Of a stretch of 64,000 nucleotides of DNA, positions 11,269-64,000 are shown piece by piece. Below the pieces are notes generated by a model, which saw only the letters and a program-made list of their open reading frames with translations, had not been told where the DNA came from and did no database searches. Source of the stretch: Patescibacteria group bacterium. GTDB taxonomy: Bacteria > Patescibacteriota > Minisyncoccia > Minisyncoccales > JAHCRE01. Both the position numbers and the translations under genes were made by a program. Position 1 is the first letter of the stretch. Every line of letters begins with the position of its first letter. The stretch is from assembly GCA_020148145.1 (NCBI GenBank), contig JAHCRE010000006.1:6368-70367 (forward strand), in the 5' to 3' direction.

Positions 11269-11302
11269 GATTTTAACAGGGTCTGCCCGACATAATCAAA
11301 AA

Positions 11303-11415
11303 CCCCGAGAAAAACTCTCGGGCGGTGCCATGCTGCGGGGCCTGAACGCTATTAGAACCTATTGGCAGTGGACAATGGAATACTCTGCGATACCAGTCTT
11401 TAATAAAATATAAAG
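11303..11415 (-). repeat. Cassette-junction element copy C (family 1)
   Basis: Hairpin at 11303-11322. Core GAACGCTATTAGAACC at 11344-11359. Confidence 0.8.
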
Positions 11416-22807: not shown

Positions 22808-23177
22808 GTCCTAGTAAGTCGGGTGATTGCGGATCGTTTTTACGATCTGAGGAAAGTCCGAACACCCATTTCCATCGCTGAGACGGATCTAAAAAGATAG
22901 CGGTTAACAACCGTCGATCGTAAGATTAGAGGTGCGAACAGAGACGCCGAGGCTCGAAAGGGTCGAGGCGCCCTCCGAAGCCAAAGGCCTCGGAGGGCGA
23001 GTTCAGCCTAAAGGCTGAGGTGAAACGGCTAAATCCTTATCGGGTGCAAGAACAAACCAAAGTTCTGCTAAATCTTGTAGAACTCTTGGAAAAGTAGTTC
23101 GCCTGAGCCCAGTGGTAACATTGGGCCTAGAGAGATAATCACTTAAAACAGAATTCGGCTTATGGACTTACTAGGAC
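22808..23177 (+). ncRNA. rnpB: RNase P RNA (bacterial type)
   Basis: P1 stem GTCCTAGTAAGTC/GACTTACTAGGAC. Universal GAGGAAAGTCCGAACAC near the 5' end and ACAGAATTCGGCTTAT near the 3' end. Confidence 0.9.
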
Positions 23178-23180
23178 ATT

Positions 23181-23216: not shown

Positions 23217-23660
23217 TTAGACTAATTTCTGAGTCTTTGCTCGAATATTGAGAGCTTCATTTACCAGCCTATCGGCCTCTTTATTTTTTTCTCGAGAAAT
23301 GAGTTTAAATTTAACTTTTTTAAAATCAATTTTTAGGTTCCAGGCTTTTAAAAAAAGAGGTTGAATTTTTGAATCTAAAATTTTGAATTGACCTCGCAAT
23401 TGTTTTACTAAAAGCTCTGAATCTGATCTTAATTCGATTTCTGAGTTTTTGGCTAATTTTTTTCCAAAAAGAGCCTTAAATTTTTTCAAAGCAGAAATGC
23501 AAGCTAAATACTCAGCCTCGTTATTTGTAAAATTCTCACCCAAATACTGAGAGTATTTTTTTATCATCTGACCCTTTTCATTACAAAACAAAGCTCCAAT
23601 GGCCGCCGGCCCAGGATTACCCCTGGAACCTCCGTCGATGTAAATTATTATCTTTTTCAT
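23217..23660 (-). CDS. rnhA: Ribonuclease HI
   Basis: Start set at the internal ATG (MKKIIIYIDGGSRGNPGPAAIG...). NNEAEY and the ADRL motif are present. The upstream part of the 214-aa track ORF is read-through of a repeat element. Confidence 0.85.
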   Translation of the reverse strand: MKKIIIYIDGGSRGNPGPAAIGALFCNEKGQMIKKYSQYLGENFTNNEAEYLACISALKKFKALFGKKLAKNSEIELRSDSELLVKQLRGQFKILDSKIQPLFLKAWNLKIDFKKVKFKLISREKNKEADRLVNEALNIRAKTQKLV

Positions 23661-23695
23661 AGGTTTAAAAGTATACTTTATATTAAAATCTGACA

Positions 23696-23846
23696 GTAAT
23701 CCTGGGCCACAGAAAGGGGTCGGGAAAACTGGGTGTTTTCCCGTAGTGGAAGTATTGAAACCGCAAGGTTTCAAGGAGCGAAGCGAAGCCCCGAAGGGGC
23801 GCTCGAGCCGAAGGCGAGAGAGAGTGGAGCGACGGCCCAGGATTAC
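23696..23846 (-). repeat. GC-rich multi-hairpin repeat, family X copy Z (inverted relative to the X1/X2 copies)
   Basis: Bounded by the 13-bp inverted repeat GTAATCCTGGGCC (23696-23708) / GGCCCAGGATTAC (23834-23846). Its reverse complement aligns with 47213-47351. Confidence 0.75.
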
Positions 23847-23886
23847 CTCTTGAGCCTCCATCTATGTAAATAATAATTTTTTTCAT
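23834..23886 (-). pseudogene. Duplicated 5' fragment of rnhA (codons 1-18)
   Basis: ATGAAAAAAATTATTATTTACATAGATGGAGGCTCAAGAGGTAATCCTGGGCC versus the real gene at 23608-23660. 8 differences, all synonymous third positions. Confidence 0.7.
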
Positions 23887-23915
23887 AATTTTTAGATTTT
23901 TTTTCGTGGTGACAG

Positions 23916-25064
23916 TCACCTTTTAGAGAAATATTCAATTAGGCGTTTTTTAAATTGTTCTAAGTTTTCATTTTTTATTCTGAAACCACAGGCCGGTGGA
24001 TGACCACCATAGGTCTCTAAAATTTCTGGACAAGTGCCCATCGCTTTGACTCCATCAAGTCCTTGAGGTATCCTTACTGCTCCTTGACTTTCTTTTTGGC
24101 CCTTCTGAAAAAGGAAGGTCGGCTTTTTATATTTCTGGCAGATTCTGGAAGCAACTGGACCAAGTAAAGTTAATGACCAGTCAGATGCTCCTTCAAAAAC
24201 TATTTCTTCTGATTTTTTCAAAATCCTTTCCTCAACTTCTCTATTTATCTCTCTGATTCTGACTTTGCGTTGAGAACTTTTTTCAAGGAGACCTTTAACC
24301 AAATATTCCGCTGTTTCTTCGTCTTTTTGAGTTAAAAGTAAATAAGCTCCGGTAAGGTGATTTTTAACATCGGCGGTATTTAAAGAAGAAATAATTCTTT
24401 GAATAAATTCTTGGAAATTTTTACAACTTTTAAGTAAATTTATTTTCAAAAAAGCCCTCAATCCCGGTCGCCAACTATTTCTAAGAGACCTAATTCCTTC
24501 TTCAATGAAAATCTGATTCTCTTCAATTCTGGGCATCTGATCGGCGATAGTGGCTAAAGCAACGAGTTCAAGGAAATTTTCTTTTAAAGACTGAGTTAAT
24601 TTTTTTCCTAAGAGAGCCTGGGAAAGCTTAAAAGCAATTGCGGCATTGGCCAGTTCTTTAAAAGGATACTCATCACCTTTTTGTTTTGGATCAACGACAA
24701 TAGAAGCCTGGGGAATTTTATTTAAAACTTGGTGATGATCAACAATAATTACCTCAAATCCCAATTTTTTAGCAAGTTTTATTTCCTCAAAATTTCCGAT
24801 TCCACAATCTAAGGTAATTAGCAAACTAGGGGCTTCATTTTTTAAATAATTTAGAGCTTTAACATTTAATCCATATCCTTCTTTTTCTCGGTCAGGAAAA
24901 TAAATAGCGGGAATTTCTCCGCCCAGAGTTTTGAGAGTTTCTTTTAAAATAAGGACTGAGGATACTCCATCTAAATCAGCATCTCCATAAAGGATGATTT
25001 TTTCTTTCGACTTAATTGCAACTATTATCCTTTGGGCTGCTTTTTTTAAATTTTTAATTTCCAC
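23916..25064 (-). CDS. DHH-family phosphoesterase (RecJ/NrnA-like)
   Basis: 382 aa. LYGDADLDG, ITLDCG, VIIVDHHQ motifs and a DHHA1-like C-terminus with GGHPPACG. Confidence 0.8.
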   Translation of the reverse strand: MEIKNLKKAAQRIIVAIKSKEKIILYGDADLDGVSSVLILKETLKTLGGEIPAIYFPDREKEGYGLNVKALNYLKNEAPSLLITLDCGIGNFEEIKLAKKLGFEVIIVDHHQVLNKIPQASIVVDPKQKGDEYPFKELANAAIAFKLSQALLGKKLTQSLKENFLELVALATIADQMPRIEENQIFIEEGIRSLRNSWRPGLRAFLKINLLKSCKNFQEFIQRIISSLNTADVKNHLTGAYLLLTQKDEETAEYLVKGLLEKSSQRKVRIREINREVEERILKKSEEIVFEGASDWSLTLLGPVASRICQKYKKPTFLFQKGQKESQGAVRIPQGLDGVKAMGTCPEILETYGGHPPACGFRIKNENLEQFKKRLIEYFSKR

Positions 25065-42742: not shown

Positions 42743-42841
42743 TTTACATACCTTCTTTGGTAAGTATAAGAAGTCTTTTAATTTTTGTCAAATTTTTATT
42801 GTTTACTATTAAATTTTGATTTAAAATTAAATAGAAGCTTT

Positions 42842-44272
42842 ATGACTAAAAAAGCTCGGACAATTTTATTTTTAATTTGCCTATTTTTATTTTTAATATC
42901 TGTTCCTTTAATTGTTTTTTATTCTCAGGGCTATAGATTTGATTTTGATTCAAAAAAAATTGTCCAGACAGGGGCCTTTTATTTTAAGGTCTGGCCAAAG
43001 AGTGTTCAAATTTATCTCGATGGGAAATTAGAAAAGAAAACTGACTTTTTCTTTGGCTCAGCTCTGATTAAAGACTTATTACCAAAAAAATATGATGTTG
43101 AAATAAAAAAATCTGGTTTCCATTCCTGGAAAAAAATTCTTCAAATAAAAGAAAAGGAAGTTACTGAAGTAAAGAGTGTTTTTTTAATTCCCGAAAATCC
43201 CAAATTTACCATCTTAACTAAGGAAACCGAGAATTTCTTTTTCTCTCCTGATGAAAGAAAAATAATTTTAGAGGAGGTCGATGAAAAAGGTTGGAACTTA
43301 AAACTTTTAGAATTAGATCGAAATGTTAAAAGCCATCTTTTTGAAGAAAAAGATTTCTCAAAAGAAAAAGTTCCTGAAGTTGAGTTTTTAGATTTAGAGT
43401 ATTCTTTAGATTCAAAAAAAATTTTACTTAAAACTAGAGAAAAAGAGAGAATAAGAACCTCGCCTTCGGCAAGAACCTTGATTCCTTCGGAATTAAAATA
43501 TTGGATTGTTGATTTAGAAAAAATTCCGGTTAATTTAATCTCTCTTGATTTTTTGGGGAGGGATATTGAAAAAATTTCTTTTAACCCAAGAGATTCTCAA
43601 AAAATATTTTTTATAAGTAAAAATAGCCTTTTTGAGGCTAATTTTATAAAAAGAGAAACAAATCAAATTTTAGAAAATTTAATAACTTATGAAACTTCCG
43701 ATAGAAATATATATTTGATTGACAATAATGGATTTTTTTTGAAAACTGACCTTTTAGGCCAAAGCCAAGAAAAGCTTAATTTAGAACCTCTTCCTTTAAA
43801 GGAAGAGGTTGAATATCAACTCTGCCTGAAATCACCAAGAACTTTCCTAAAAGAAAATGATATTTTACATATTTTTAATCCAGACTCAAAGAATTTTGAA
43901 AAATTTTTTGAATCAATTAAAGATTTTAAATTTTCTCCAGATTTGAAAAAAATGGTTTTTTTTAGTGATTATGAGATTTGGGTCTTTTTTTTAGAAGAAA
44001 AATATGGCCAGCCTCGGAAAAAAACCGGAGAAAGAATTTTTTTAACTCGGTTTTCAGAAAAAATCAGGAATTGCTTTTGGTATACTCCCCATTATTTAAT
44101 ATTTAATGCTGGGAGTGTCATAAAAATTGCCGAGATTGATGATCGAGACAGAATAAATATTGTTGATTTAGCAAACCTTCAATCCCCAGAGATATTTTGG
44201 AATGAGAGCAATAAAAAACTGTATGTTTTGAGTGATGGAAATTTATATGTTTCCGAAATGTTAATAAAATGA
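42842..44272 (+). CDS. Membrane-anchored PEGA-domain / beta-propeller-like protein
   Basis: Start moved to ATG 42842 (MTKKARTILFLICLFLFLISV...). PEGA-like VQIYLDGKL...YDVEIKKSGFHSW. The only clear plus-strand CDS in the window. Confidence 0.7.
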   Translation: MTKKARTILFLICLFLFLISVPLIVFYSQGYRFDFDSKKIVQTGAFYFKVWPKSVQIYLDGKLEKKTDFFFGSALIKDLLPKKYDVEIKKSGFHSWKKILQIKEKEVTEVKSVFLIPENPKFTILTKETENFFFSPDERKIILEEVDEKGWNLKLLELDRNVKSHLFEEKDFSKEKVPEVEFLDLEYSLDSKKILLKTREKERIRTSPSARTLIPSELKYWIVDLEKIPVNLISLDFLGRDIEKISFNPRDSQKIFFISKNSLFEANFIKRETNQILENLITYETSDRNIYLIDNNGFFLKTDLLGQSQEKLNLEPLPLKEEVEYQLCLKSPRTFLKENDILHIFNPDSKNFEKFFESIKDFKFSPDLKKMVFFSDYEIWVFFLEEKYGQPRKKTGERIFLTRFSEKIRNCFWYTPHYLIFNAGSVIKIAEIDDRDRINIVDLANLQSPEIFWNESNKKLYVLSDGNLYVSEMLIK

Positions 44273-46281: not shown

Positions 46282-47198
46282 TGTTTAAGTTCTAAGTTTA
46301 GTTTTTTTAGAACTTTTTTTATTTCTTTCACTCCCTTTTTGCCCATCCCTTCCAGTTTTAATAAATTTTCTTCACTCTTTCTTAAAATTCCACTGATAGT
46401 TTTTATATTATTTTTTAACAAAGCATTTTTAGTTCTGATGGAAAATTTTAAATCCTCTACTTTAACTTTAAGTTTCTCAATTTTTTCTTCTTTTTTCACT
46501 GGATAGACTTCCTTTGGTTTAAAGGCTTGACTAAACATGGTAAAATGCTGGTTTAAAATTTCTGATGCCCGGTAAAACGCCCATTCAGGAGTAATTGTCC
46601 CATCGGTCTCAACTTCCAGGATTAACCGATCAAAATCAGTTCTTTCTCCAACCCGCATATTTTCTACATGAAAACTCACGTTTCTAATGGGAGTAAAAAC
46701 AGCATCAAGGGTAATCTTTCCTATTTCCAATTTTTCCTTTTTCCTTAATTCTCGGGAAACATATCCTAATCCTTTTTCAATTTGGATTTCCATTTCTAAT
46801 TCTGATTTTTTATCTGTTAAAGTAGCAATCAGAAAATTCTTGTTGACTAATTCAACCTGGGAAGGTAACTGAAAATCAGAACCTAAAACTTTTTTTTCTC
46901 CTTTAACTCTCAAAAATCCTCTCTGGGGTTCATCGGTGAAGATTTTAAATCTTAGTTGTTTCAGATTTAACATAATAGTAATCATGTCTTCTAAAGCACC
47001 AGGGATTGTTGAAAATTCATGTTCAACTCCCTTAATCTTCACTTGAGTAACGGCCGCTCCCGACAGAGAAGAGAGTAAAACTCTCCGGAGAGAATTACCA
47101 ATGGTCACCCCATAATTAGGATATAAAGCCCTAATTTCAAAACGGGCTCGATTTCCTTTTTTTTCAATAATTTTTGGCTGAAGAGGAAGAGAAATCAT
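46278..47198 (-). CDS. rpoA: DNA-directed RNA polymerase alpha subunit
   Basis: 306 aa. GNSLRRVLLSS, N-terminal and C-terminal domain organisation. Confidence 0.93.
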   Translation of the reverse strand: MISLPLQPKIIEKKGNRARFEIRALYPNYGVTIGNSLRRVLLSSLSGAAVTQVKIKGVEHEFSTIPGALEDMITIMLNLKQLRFKIFTDEPQRGFLRVKGEKKVLGSDFQLPSQVELVNKNFLIATLTDKKSELEMEIQIEKGLGYVSRELRKKEKLEIGKITLDAVFTPIRNVSFHVENMRVGERTDFDRLILEVETDGTITPEWAFYRASEILNQHFTMFSQAFKPKEVYPVKKEEKIEKLKVKVEDLKFSIRTKNALLKNNIKTISGILRKSEENLLKLEGMGKKGVKEIKKVLKKLNLELKQ

Positions 47199-47212
47199 AG
47201 TGGTAATACAAA

Positions 47213-47351
47213 GTTAATCGCTCGCCCTCTTCCAGCCTTACGGCTGGCGGTCGCCTTCGGCGACCTTCGGGCTCGCTCTTTAAAAACCCTCGGTTTTTAA
47301 TATTTTCCTATACGGGGAAACCGAAGGGTTTCCCCGACCCCCTTCCGATAT
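47213..47351 (-). repeat. GC-rich multi-hairpin repeat, family X copy 1 (rpsD-rpoA spacer)
   Basis: TTAATCGCTCGCCCTCT...GACCCCCTTCCGATAT. Hairpins CCAGCC-TTAC-GGCTGG, GGTCGCC-TTCG-GCGACC, TTAAAAACC-CTC-GGTTTTTAA, GGGGAAACC-GAAG-GGTTTCCCC. Confidence 0.8.
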
Positions 47352-54622: not shown

Positions 54623-55402
54623 TCAAGATTTTTTGACTGCCTTTATTATTTTAATAAATTCTTGAGGATTTAAAGAAGCTCCACCTATTAAAAGACCGTC
54701 CATTCTTGCTTCTTTAATATAGCCTGCTGCATTTTTACTGTTAACGCTGCCTCCGTAAATTATTCGAATTTTCTCAGATATATTACGACTAAAAATTCGG
54801 TTTATAATTTTTCGAATAAGTAAACCCATAATCTGAGCTTCTTTAACATCACAGGGTTTTCCAGTTCCAATTGCCCAAACTGGTTCATAGGCAATTACAA
54901 TATTTTTGATTTCTTTTTTTGAAATTTTTTTAAGTCCTTTTTCAATCTGAGATTTTAAAATATTTTGGGTTTTACCTTTTTCTCGCTCAGTTTTGGTCTC
55001 GCCAATACAAAAAATTGGATTTAATTTTACTAATATCGCTTTTTTCATTTTTTTATTTATCACATCATCGGTCTCACCAAACCACCTTCTTCTTTCGGAA
55101 TGACCCAAAATCACATAATCACATCCTAGATCCTTGAGCATTAAAGATGAAATTTCCCCAGTAAAAGCTCCTTTTTCTTCCCAAAAACAATCTTGCGAGC
55201 CGGAGGCGAGTCCGCCGAAGCCCGCCTTTCGGCGGGCGGAGGTGGAAACTCCTAAAATTGATAAATAAACAAAAGGTGGGCAAATTACCACCTCAATATT
55301 TTTAATATTTTTTATTCTTCTTTTCAGGGAATTAAAAAGTTTCTTTGCTTCAATTAAAGTTTGAGGGTTACACTTCCAATTGGCGACAATTAGTGGTTTC
55401 AT
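54623..55402 (-). CDS. tpiA: Triosephosphate isomerase
   Basis: 259 aa. ANWKCN, GAFTGEIS, GHSERR, AYEPVWAIGTG. Confidence 0.94.
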   Translation of the reverse strand: MKPLIVANWKCNPQTLIEAKKLFNSLKRRIKNIKNIEVVICPPFVYLSILGVSTSARRKAGFGGLASGSQDCFWEEKGAFTGEISSLMLKDLGCDYVILGHSERRRWFGETDDVINKKMKKAILVKLNPIFCIGETKTEREKGKTQNILKSQIEKGLKKISKKEIKNIVIAYEPVWAIGTGKPCDVKEAQIMGLLIRKIINRIFSRNISEKIRIIYGGSVNSKNAAGYIKEARMDGLLIGGASLNPQEFIKIIKAVKKS

Positions 55403-62098: not shown

Positions 62099-62113
62099 AA
62101 TATTCTTTTATTT

Positions 62114-62255
62114 AAGCGAGGGAATCAATTTTTATGGACCATCCGCAGCGAGTTGGCATGGTCTCGCCGCAGAGCGGCGAGCAACTCGCGAGGACATGAG
62201 CCTGATCCTCGCTGGGGGTCAGAGCGTGTCCTAAAAATTGGATTCCCGAAGCGCC
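62114..62255 (-). repeat. Long-hairpin (TIR-type) repeat, family Y copy 1 (rpsH-rplF spacer)
   Basis: Arms GCGAGGGAATCAATTTTTATGGAC (62116-62139) and GTCCTAAAAATTGGATTCCCGAAGCGC (62228-62254). GC-rich core. Abuts the rpsH stop codon. Confidence 0.75.
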
Positions 62256-62645
62256 CTACCATATTTCACAAATTACCTCTCCTCCTAATTTCCTTTTTCT
62301 CGCCTCTTTATTAGTCATTAAACCCTCAGGGGTAGAGATAATAGCTATTCCATATCCTCCTTTTACTCTCTTAATTTTTTTAAATGGCAAATAAATTTTT
62401 TGACCGGGTTTAGAGATTCTTCGCAAACCAGATATTGCGGGAGTTTTATCATCGTATTTTAAAGTAATTTCAATAAATTTTCTTACTTTTCTACCTTTTC
62501 TCTCAACTTTTTCAATAAATCCTTTTTTTTCAAAAATTTTAGCTATCTTATATTTCAAATTAGAAAAAGGAATATTAACCGTAGGATGTAAAACGGCTTG
62601 GGCATTACGAATTCGATTTAACATATCGGTTATAGGATCGGTCAT
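62256..62645 (-). CDS. rpsH: 30S ribosomal protein S8
   Basis: 129 aa. DPITDMLNRIRNA. Confidence 0.94.
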   Translation of the reverse strand: MTDPITDMLNRIRNAQAVLHPTVNIPFSNLKYKIAKIFEKKGFIEKVERKGRKVRKFIEITLKYDDKTPAISGLRRISKPGQKIYLPFKKIKRVKGGYGIAIISTPEGLMTNKEARKRKLGGEVICEIW

Positions 62646-62652
62646 ATTCTTT

Positions 62653-62838
62653 TTACCAACTTGATTTTTTAACTCCAGGAATTAATCCCTGATTTGCCAT
62701 TTCTCTAAAACAAATTCGGCATAAACCAAATTTTCTCATATATCCCCTTTTTCTCCCACACCTAAAACAGCGTAAAATTTTTCGAGTTGAAAATTTGGGC
62801 TTTTTCTTAGATTTAACAATTTGAGCTTTTACTGCCAT
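62653..62838 (-). CDS. rpsN: 30S ribosomal protein S14, short Zn-binding (type Z)
   Basis: Start set at the internal ATG 62838 ([13 protein letters not shown]...[20 protein letters not shown]...W). The track ORF start lies inside a repeat element. Confidence 0.9.
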
Positions 62839-62852
62839 TGGTATTACATAAT

Positions 62853-63055
62853 TAATCGCTCGCCCTCTCCAGAACAAAGTTCTGGCGCTCCCCGCCCAGG
62901 GCGGATCGCTTCGGGCTCGCTCTTTAAAAACCCTCGGTTTTTAATATTTTCCTATACGGGGAAACCGAATGGTTTCCCAGATGGGGCTTTCCGACTCAAC
63001 CCGCTTCGCAGGTTTCGCGGAGAAGCCTCGCGCCTTGACCGACCCCCTTCCGATA
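62853..63055 (-). repeat. GC-rich multi-hairpin repeat, family X copy 2 (rplE-rpsN spacer)
   Basis: Same ends as copy 1 (TTAATCGCTCGCCCTCT ... GACCCCCTTCCGATAT) and same central CTTCGGGCTCGCTCTTTAAAAACCCTCGGTTTTTAATATTTTCCTATACGGGGAAACCGAA. About 60 nt of extra hairpins. Confidence 0.8.
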
Positions 63056-63062
63056 TGGGGTG

Positions 63063-63623
63063 TTATGAAGATTTAATTGGGAATCCCATTAATCTTAATA
63101 GTTCAATTCCTTCTTCCCGAGTCTTAGTAGTAGTCACAACGGTTATTTCAAATCCAAAAATATTTTTGACTTTTTCTGGAGATATTTCAGGGAAACAAAT
63201 ATGTTCTTTAATAGCAATAGTTAAATTCCCTTCTTTATCAAATGATTTTAAATTAATCCCCTGAAAATCTCGAGACCTAGGAAGACCAATATGAATTAGT
63301 CTTTCTAAAAAATCTGTCATTCTCTTTCCTCTCAGCGTCACTCGAGCTCCAATCGGCATTCCCTGACGAATTTTAAAGCCGGAAATTGATTTTCTTGCTC
63401 TTCTTAATTCTAGATGCTGTCCAGTGATTAAAGCAAGGTCATTTGAGATAGCTTCATAAATTTTTTTTTGTTCTTCTGAGGTTTTTCCAAAAATTTTACT
63501 ACCAAATCCGGTGTTAATCACCACTTTCTCAATCCTGGGAACAGCCATAGGGCTTTTATATCTGAATTTTTGAATCATCTGGGGAACGACCTCTTTTTTA
63601 TATTTTTCTTTTAAGGAAAGCAT
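63063..63623 (-). CDS. rplE: 50S ribosomal protein L5
   Basis: 186 aa. Order and motifs (PRIEKVVINTG, FDKEGNLTI..E). Confidence 0.94.
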   Translation of the reverse strand: MLSLKEKYKKEVVPQMIQKFRYKSPMAVPRIEKVVINTGFGSKIFGKTSEEQKKIYEAISNDLALITGQHLELRRARKSISGFKIRQGMPIGARVTLRGKRMTDFLERLIHIGLPRSRDFQGINLKSFDKEGNLTIAIKEHICFPEISPEKVKNIFGFEITVVTTTKTREEGIELLRLMGFPIKSS

Positions 63624-63632
63624 ATTTTAGAA

Positions 63633-64000
63633 TTAGATTTCTTTTCCACATTTCTTACATATCCTTATTTTTGATTTCTTATTTTTGCCGCTCGATTTCA
63701 TTGAGCGCCCGCTTCGCCTCGGCGAAGACGAGGCGAGAACCTCCCGCCCACTTAGGCGAGGCTCGCCCACTTTGTGGGCGGCACCTCTTTGAGGCGGGAT
63801 TTTTGATATTACTTTATAACCTATCCTGGTTGCCTTTCCGCATTTTGAACAAATGAGTTTTACATTGGAAACAGGAATAGGGGCCGGCAGTTCTATAATT
63901 TGACCTTTTTCCTCTGTCCTTCTTGGTTTAATATGTTTTTTTCTTAAATTAACTCCTTCAACTAAAAGTTTTTGCTCTTCGGGAAAAGCCTTTAAAACCT
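63633..64000 (-). CDS. rplX: 50S ribosomal protein L24, 3' part (5' end beyond window), carrying an in-frame insertion
   Basis: Own translation: ..LLVEGVNLRKKHIKPRRTEEKGQIIELPAPIPVSNVKLICSKCGKATRIGYKVIS[38 aa]GKNKKSKIRICKKCGKEI*. Stop at 63633-63635. Confidence 0.88.
   Translation of the reverse strand, partial: VLKAFPEEQKLLVEGVNLRKKHIKPRRTEEKGQIIELPAPIPVSNVKLICSKCGKATRIGYKVISKIPPQRGAAHKVGEPRLSGREVLASSSPRRSGRSMKSSGKNKKSKIRICKKCGKEI
63690..63803 (-). repeat. 114-nt GC-rich hairpin-rich insertion, in frame within rplX
   Basis: Encodes KIPPQRGAAHKVGEPRLSGREVLASSSPRRSGRSMKSS. Hairpins CTTCGCC-TCG-GCGAAG and GCCCAC-TTT-GTGGGC. Absent from the L24 sequences I recall (e.g. B. subtilis RVGYKVEDGKKVRV). 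Confidence 0.75.

Follow-up and report, generated by a model that had tools for sequence, protein, structure and literature searches.

A GC-rich element between duplicated gene ends in Patescibacteria: a candidate gene-free homing cassette at rnhA

In the window, i.e., the whole 64-kb stretch of Patescibacteria DNA analysed here, the start of rnhA occurs twice, and the two copies flank a GC-rich multi-hairpin core followed by a short inverted copy of the target sequence. We propose, with confidence evenly balanced between acceptance and doubt, that this unit is a small non-autonomous homing cassette bearing a replacement gene end; the family to which it belongs is widespread in Patescibacteria. 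These bacteria have tiny genomes dense in essential genes, and the element was found within 20 codons of the start or the end of ribosomal-protein, repair and tRNA genes, none of which was broken. Its mode of movement looks undescribed.

The duplicated rnhA start and its surroundings

Codons 1–18 of rnhA were found on the minus strand at 23660–23608 and again at 23886–23834, exactly where a preliminary description of the same DNA had placed them, and a repeat search delimited the pair as 23604–23666 and 23830–23892 with a spacing of 226 nt. The sequence ATGAAAAAGATAATAATTTACATCGACGGAGGTTCCAGGGGTAATCCTGGGCC at 23660 is the true start, which opens the 147-aa RNase HI ORF, and ATGAAAAAAATTATTATTTACATAGATGGAGGCTCAAGAGGTAATCCTGGGCC at 23886 is the start of the upstream copy. 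The two 53-mers differ at eight positions, and all eight differences are synonymous (AAA/AAG, ATT/ATA twice, ATA/ATC, GAT/GAC, GGC/GGT, TCA/TCC and AGA/AGG; p ~1.5e-5, with a chance expectation of ca. 22% synonymous). Both copies keep the N-terminus of RNase H including the catalytic DGG. On the plus strand, the 13-nt sequence GTAATCCTGGGCC at 23696–23708 is 100% complementary to the last 13 nt of each copy of codons 1–18 (23608–23620 and 23834–23846), so that the perfect 13-bp clamp of the preliminary description was confirmed for both copies. The 125 nt separating the upstream copy from this 13-mer have a G+C content of 64% vs 35% for the window.

The duplicated target is referred to here as T (T1 upstream, T2 downstream), its terminal stretch as b, the inverted copy of this stretch as b' and the GC-rich core as X. 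The window shows the order recJ, T1, X, b' and T2 joined to the rnhA body (Table 1), and the inter-copy unit of 226 nt is made up of X (125 nt), b' (13 nt) and T2 (35 + 53 nt). This 226-nt cassette encodes no gene, and the sole opposite-strand ORF of the window (42785–44272), screened as a possible transposase or reverse transcriptase, had no Pfam hit. The probable non-coding part of T1 was delimited from the total T length of ca. 88 nt at the rnhA, rplN, rpsI and rplP sites and, except for CTGTCA, could not be aligned to 23661–23695.

The ORF arising from the upstream copy appears in the ORF list from its GTG at 23919, and there was no evidence that it is functional. Exact-protein look-ups with the 147-aa RnhA gave no return; the identical protein P0001 (NCBI) comes from a Patescibacteria MAG and has the Pfam domain RNase_H. 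The nearest other RnhA relatives share ca. 81%–83% protein identity, with synonymous sites saturated. An ENA scaffold from the same genome (L046) was 100% identical over 3645 nt and is possibly not an independent assembly. The insertion was absent from most rnhA homologues; at one empty site (L003), the stop codon of the recJ-like gene overlaps the rnhA ATG (ATGA). The inserted element is also the cause of spurious, N-terminally extended rnhA calls (P0002, 214 aa; P0076, 216 aa; vs ca. 147 aa). Immediately downstream of rnhA and convergent with it lies an RNase P RNA gene (22811–23178, plus strand; Rfam RF00010, 127 bits), which accounts for the GC-rich island beside rnhA.

Table 1 Features around rnhA and X copies in the window, and target sites of class B copies at other loci
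Feature	Position or locus	Strand	Remarks
rnhA, intact, 147-aa RNase HI	23217–23660	−	PF00075, PF13456; 100% identical to P0001
T2 coding part, rnhA codons 1–18	23608–23660	−	Joined to gene body; ends in b, the second hairpin arm; T2-specific variants: sequence ...GGTTCCAGGGGTAATCCTGGGCC
c2, AT-rich spacer, T2 non-coding part	23661–23695	−	Holds upstream region of functional rnhA start
ORF from upstream copy, 67 aa	23683–23886	−	MKKIIIYIDGGSRGNPGP, then element-encoded residues; stop 22 nt before real ATG
b' (clamp), the final 13 nt of T in inverted copy	23696–23708	−	First arm of cassette 3' hairpin
X core, class B, GC-rich multi-hairpin	23709–23833	−	GTCGCTCC...CCCGACCCCTTTCTGT; nhmmer E = 3.5e-17
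T1, upstream rnhA codons 1–18	23834–23886	−	recJ-like side; severed from rnhA body by element; probably resident
Probable non-coding T1 part	23887–23921	−	ca. 35 nt before first ATG; overlaps DHH/recJ-like stop
DHH/DHHA1 (recJ-like) gene	23916–25064	−	Upstream of rnhA
X copy, class A	47218–47345	+	rpsD/rpoA spacer; antisense to both; no clamp, no duplication
X copy, class A	62855–63055	+	rplE/rpsN-start spacer; antisense to both; extra hairpin insert of ca. 60 nt
rnhA, same codon	L001/L043		79% identical protein
rnhA, same codon	L042		Distant rnhA
rplN 5' end	L005
rplP 5' end	L035		Duplication perfect over at least 63 nt
rpsI 3' end	L029
nusG 3' end	L039
uvrC 3' end	L038, L045, L041
rpmG 3' end	L020
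tRNA genes	L011, L044

The X repeat family and its two classes

The core X forms a family of ca. 40 loci in Patescibacteria, and the 64-kb window holds three copies. A pattern for the conserved 3' hairpin matched 30 loci among one-genome-per-species contigs, all of them in Patescibacteria MAGs; a narrower X pattern matched 12 metagenome loci, again all from Patescibacteria, and viral contigs scanned with the X pattern gave no match. The core contains two conserved hairpins whose stem variants are all Watson–Crick compensatory, with no G-U pairs, indicating that the structure of X is strand-neutral. G-U vs A-C wobble was consequently uninformative as a guide to the transcribed strand. Rfam 15 at the gathering threshold returned only RNase P and tRNAs in the window and, with E-values up to 10 allowed across the element, nothing credible; covariance models of riboswitches, ribozymes, introns and omega RNA/HEARO gave no match to the element. 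No description of the element was found in the literature on CPR GC-rich insertions, Patescibacteria MITEs and palindromic elements of AT-rich genomes, nor in that on target-site duplication, inverted duplication and template switching.

Class A copies act as stop-to-start spacer filler and have conserved extensions on both sides. One extension (47190–47217 and 62838–62858 in the window; L004–L033) reads CAT AGTGGTAATACCAAGTTA, that is, on the gene strand, TAACTTGGTATTACCACT immediately before the ATG of the next gene (rpoA, rpsN, and rnhA in L030). The other end of class A abuts the preceding stop codon, so the element supplies the entire stop-to-start spacer. In addition to this class A copy directly before an rnhA ATG in L030, an unlike GC-rich element of ca. 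150 nt in L002 (1190–1350; Logan SRR32194794) separates the recJ-like stop from the rnhA ATG and is closed by a 20-nt inverted repeat (GGGAGTATGGCTTTTTGCGAC / GTCGCAAAAGCCATATTCCC). The recJ–rnhA junction is a repeated landing place for several element families.

Class B copies, including the one at rnhA, end in ...CCCGACCCCyyTCTG. An inverted repeat beginning 4–10 nt after CCCGACCCC was found in all 23 non-redundant class B copies and in none of 22 class A copies. Its arms measure 7–17 nt, with scores of 7–17 vs ca. 5 for shuffled flanks, and their sequence is site-specific, differing at every class B site; the clamp is hence not a fixed terminal repeat of the "151-nt element" of the preliminary description. 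All 23 copies share one layout, in which T1 ending in b is followed by X, b', T2 ending in b, and the remainder of the target. The arm b' is the complement of the target sequence ending at the 5' edge of X, and in hairpins with a long loop, this loop together with the second arm is a duplicate of the left flank. The second arm ends ca. 98–114, 56–81 or 27–32 nt past X, corresponding to a T of ca. 88 nt, a T of ca. 50 nt or a bare hairpin, respectively, and the target duplications vary between ca. 45 and 90 nt. The suggestion of the preliminary description that the arrangement might be the footprint of a homology-related insertion was borne out, and it holds for the element family in general.

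Class B layouts were observed in either orientation relative to the target, and the insertion points had no consensus among sites. The gene end was duplicated and the gene left intact at class B sites, with the intact gene adjoining T2 in every case (rnhA, rplN, rplP, rpsI, nusG, uvrC and rpmG). The 5' ends of X were variable in L035, L011 and L042 through microhomology or truncation; in L035, the 5' end of X shares a 12-nt microhomology with the target. At rnhA, the insertion is 228 nt long and in frame in L001 and 226 nt long and out of frame in the window.

The arm b' usually fits T2 better than T1 and often pairs 2–4 nt beyond the insertion point, i.e., with the intact target. Its mismatches look allelic, implying KWRKG vs KWHKG in L035 and GGG vs GGC in L042. 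Between the window and L001, the 13-mer carries two exactly compensatory changes.

Allele-like divergence of the copies and exchange of the block

The T copies of eight sites together showed 61 differences, 52 of which fell in synonymous codons, whereas ca. 22% would be expected by chance (P ~7e-23). At rpsI, nusG and rpmG, the peptide is identical in the relic and the working copy despite 8–10 differences each (relics FGLKRARRAPQWKKR*, FGRDTPVKLDALQIKKI and KWCRKHTPHKETKK, respectively), and the uvrC relic has conservative, ortholog-like replacements. The rpsI, nusG and rpmG relics sit past the stop codon of the gene and past an antisense X, and translation therefore cannot maintain them. Selection through translation of the upstream copy was ruled out on this ground, as relics past stops or antisense to X are equally conserved. 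Gene conversion between the copies as the only cause was ruled out by reasoning, since a copy free of constraint would still gain mainly non-synonymous differences. The coding parts of T keep the protein, and the non-coding parts have diverged past alignment. Judged from these sequence comparisons, T1 and T2 look like alleles from diverged lineages rather than products of decay after a local duplication.

The preliminary description had regarded the upstream copy as the extra one, derived from a diverged allele, and the downstream copy as the real start. Codon usage suggests the reverse: at seven of the eight differing codons, T1 of the window has the codon preferred by the genome and T2 a rarer one. 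This weakly suggests that the functional downstream copy beside b' was imported and the upstream copy is resident, an argument that involves eight codons only and a bias that is absent in L001.

Two comparisons bear on the movement of the unit. Between the uvrC loci L038 and L045, the flanks and T1 are 84%–87% identical, and the sequences are ca. 100% identical from the middle of X (its 3' half) via b' and T2 to ca. 65 nt beyond, which shows that this block was recently exchanged between lineages. In L006, X and b' with a 16-codon rpsI fragment lie between unrelated genes, and the resemblance to the rpsI locus (L029) breaks off precisely where b ends. These alignments show that X-b'-T can be moved or exchanged as a whole. 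Such block transfer and the ectopic cassette, together with the synonymous pattern above, uphold the earlier proposal that one copy came from a diverged but selected allele, by recombination or with the element, and not from slippage.

The history of X itself is less straightforward. X of the window is 80% identical to that of L001, and the host genes are 71%–81% identical; X is thus no more conserved than host genes, a result as compatible with long vertical co-divergence as with repeated homing. Furthermore, X of the window is mosaic. Its 5' half (of the copy at 23709–23833) is closest to the rnhA-site copy of L001 (80%), and its 3' half matches those at different genes of different genomes with 89%–91% identity (L005, 91%; L045, 90%). 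The mosaic implies that X copies often recombine with, or are re-copied from, one another, which complicates a simple cassette history.

At L045 (Ga0315280_10068020), only the last ca. 35 uvrC codons follow the cassette, and what comes next bears no relation to L038. This may reflect a rearrangement or the loss of genes, with a breakpoint near the element.

The cassette proposal, its alternatives and related elements

Under the cassette proposal, the mobile unit would consist of the conserved GC-rich multi-hairpin X and a variable hairpin, with b' as the first arm and T2 providing the loop and the second arm. It would be placed directly after the resident gene end T1, and T2 would take over as the working end, so that the gene stays intact. 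Spread to the orthologous site in other lineages might proceed through a homology-dependent step in which T is the homology arm that invades and b', by pairing over the insertion point of the resident, brings the 5' end of X into register with the resident strand. Spread of this kind would account for one T copy being foreign and for its differences being confined to synonymous or conservative positions. New sites would be rare and could arise through a replicative or template-switch event that duplicates 45–90 nt of the target with a 13–17-nt snap-back. Several points speak against the proposal: no recombinase, reverse transcriptase or nuclease partner was identified, and no circular, ssDNA or RNA intermediate was observed; alleles that are 15%–20% diverged are poor substrates for ordinary RecA recombination; and overwriting of T1 through recombination with empty-site alleles would give an equal synonymous pattern without a carried T2.

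A further claim is put forward tentatively, as a possibility that we hold to be rather less than probable. Class B X might represent a new kind of bacterial mobile DNA, namely a gene-free homing mini-cassette that has its own homology arm and a 13–17-nt splint complementary to the insertion point, enters the same codon across diverged lineages, keeps essential genes intact and relies on host or trans-acting machinery, by a mechanism (a self-priming 3' hairpin or template switch) undescribed for any transposon family. If an element does carry its own gene end and a target-matching clamp, it would offer a minimal, protein-free design for safe site-directed insertion and would allow short stretches of essential genes to pass between lineages. 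The element also supplies markers for tracing recombination in uncultivated lineages.

The strongest alternative, which is conceivable though somewhat unlikely in our judgement, is a de novo insertion with a 45–90-nt target-site duplication and a 13–17-nt snap-back, after which T1 or T2 was repeatedly overwritten by the functional alleles of other strains; T would then not be carried by the cassette. The perfect duplication at L035 (at least 63 nt), where target and X 5' end share a 12-nt microhomology, would be expected of such an event, as would T lengths that cluster near 88 and 50 nt as if set by a ruler, and the variable 5' ends of X in L035, L011 and L042 resemble microhomology joins. 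Inter-lineage recombination with a crossover within X was even seen directly. However, each relic examined would have to be overwritten before any non-synonymous change arose, at eight sites, and b' tracks T2, not T1. Moreover, the occurrence of an rpsI fragment with its b' at the unrelated locus L006, with the boundary exactly at b, argues for the carriage of T as in the cassette proposal.

A cis-regulatory RNA device, in which the clamp alternates between the decoy and the real coding region to switch rnhA translation with the upstream ORF as a leader, is very improbable; the preliminary description had named a translational switch as a possibility. In favour of such a device, the predicted RNA fold (−98.4 kcal/mol, z = −3.6) has b' paired to the downstream copy, 22 nt separate the end of the upstream ORF from the real ATG, and the 13-mer of L001 has compensatory changes. 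The same architecture, however, occurs antisense to genes, at 3' ends past stop codons and in tRNA genes, from which it follows that clamp and duplication belong to the element and not to rnhA regulation. Other observations also conflict with a switch: the reading frame is kept by the 228-nt insertion of L001 and not by the 226-nt insertion of the window, the strand-neutral X stems lack G-U pairs, most rnhA relatives lack the insertion, and there is no Rfam match. Nor did we find the constancy of sense orientation and of position relative to the regulated gene that would be expected of a cis-regulatory element. The effect on rnhA in the window is most likely neutral because the intact start and its own upstream spacer are kept.

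An intron-like or ribosome-bypassed insert comprising X-b'-T2, with the upstream copy as the real exon 1 and hence conserved in its coding capacity, is scarcely credible. Although the RNase H N-terminus with the catalytic DGG is present in both copies and b' resembles an exon-binding guide paired to the end of the 5' exon, relics at gene 3' ends, where X is antisense, are equally conserved, and T2 comes with an ATG and a spacer of its own. Matches to group I or group II introns or to ribozymes were not obtained; moreover, X is only 125 nt long, and known self-splicing introns are far larger. Finally, an assembly artefact or local slippage duplication, for which nothing speaks beyond the repeat itself, is practically negligible: the repeats differ at eight sites, the structure was found again in further samples and lineages (L001, L043 and L042), which excludes the assembly error that the preliminary description had named as a refutation, another scaffold of this genome shows no difference, and decay after slippage could not have produced a strictly synonymous pattern.

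Among known systems, the candidate cassette is nearest in logic to gene-end-replacing integrative elements and in form to small hairpin repeats. Islands and phages that integrate in tRNA or tmRNA 3' ends carry a replacement end, and in XerCD-dependent IMEX such as the CTX phage, single-stranded DNA folds two inverted target-like sites into a hairpin. As in gene-end integrators, the target end is duplicated, the element-borne copy is the working end and the gene survives; as in these and in IMEX, the copies differ like alleles, and the element contains an inverted pair of target-like sequences. In contrast to gene-end integrators, the cassette measures ca. 140–230 nt, has no integrase and occupies many target genes at 5' or 3' ends; the duplicated 45–90 nt and the clamp are site-specific, and no conserved core att site was seen.

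Small repeats are known from compact AT-rich genomes, e.g., Rickettsia palindromic elements, Neisseria Correia elements and yeast mitochondrial GC clusters. Like MITE- or REP-like repeats, the element is short, non-coding, hairpin-rich, multi-copy and GC-rich relative to its host, and it lies between and within genes, at times in frame (L001). Unlike MITEs, it has no conserved terminal inverted repeats, its arms being target-derived and different at each site, and instead of a short fixed target duplication it shows a long one and a site-specific inverted 13–17-mer. Target-primed SINE/LINE retroposition shares with it a defined 3' end and may be comparable in its variable 5' microhomology joins and long target duplications of variable length, and the transport of a 3' flank to a new locus (L006) recalls 3' transduction. 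The duplications are longer, however, the snap-back inverted target copy (b') is not a SINE feature, and the class B cassette has no known reverse transcriptase, poly-A or RNA intermediate.

A scaffold of ca. 125 nt followed by 13–17 nt complementary to the target also resembles guide RNAs (TnpB/IscB omega RNA, IS110 bridge RNA and group II EBS–IBS pairing), but there is no Rfam match, no nearby partner protein and no G-U stem variant. Furthermore, the occupied allele retains an intact target (T2 and the gene body), and therefore the logic of a homing nuclease does not fit. An integron attC site was rejected, as the class B arms share no R''/R' cores (RYYYAAC/GTTRRRY).

Further GC-rich segments were observed in the window. 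Within tpiA (54623–55402, minus strand), the hairpin-forming GC-rich sequence GCGAGCCGGAGGCGAGTCCGCCGAAGCCCGCCTTTCGGCGGGCGGAGG at 55190–55260 leaves the triosephosphate isomerase frame unbroken and may be another small GC-rich insertion in a coding region. Multi-hairpin islands with 64%–68% G+C that are not X-like lie in spacers of the ribosomal-protein operon, at 62109–62274 (rplF/rpsH spacer) and 63663–63830 (just past the end of rplE at 63623), and presumably represent other families of the same kind of element. Two related GC-rich segments at 1620–1700 and 11300–11360 had no Rfam match at the gathering threshold; they share CCCGAGAAAAACTCTCGGG...GCTGCGGGGCCTGAACGCT..GAACCTATT and may represent a small RNA that is repeated or a further family of repeats.
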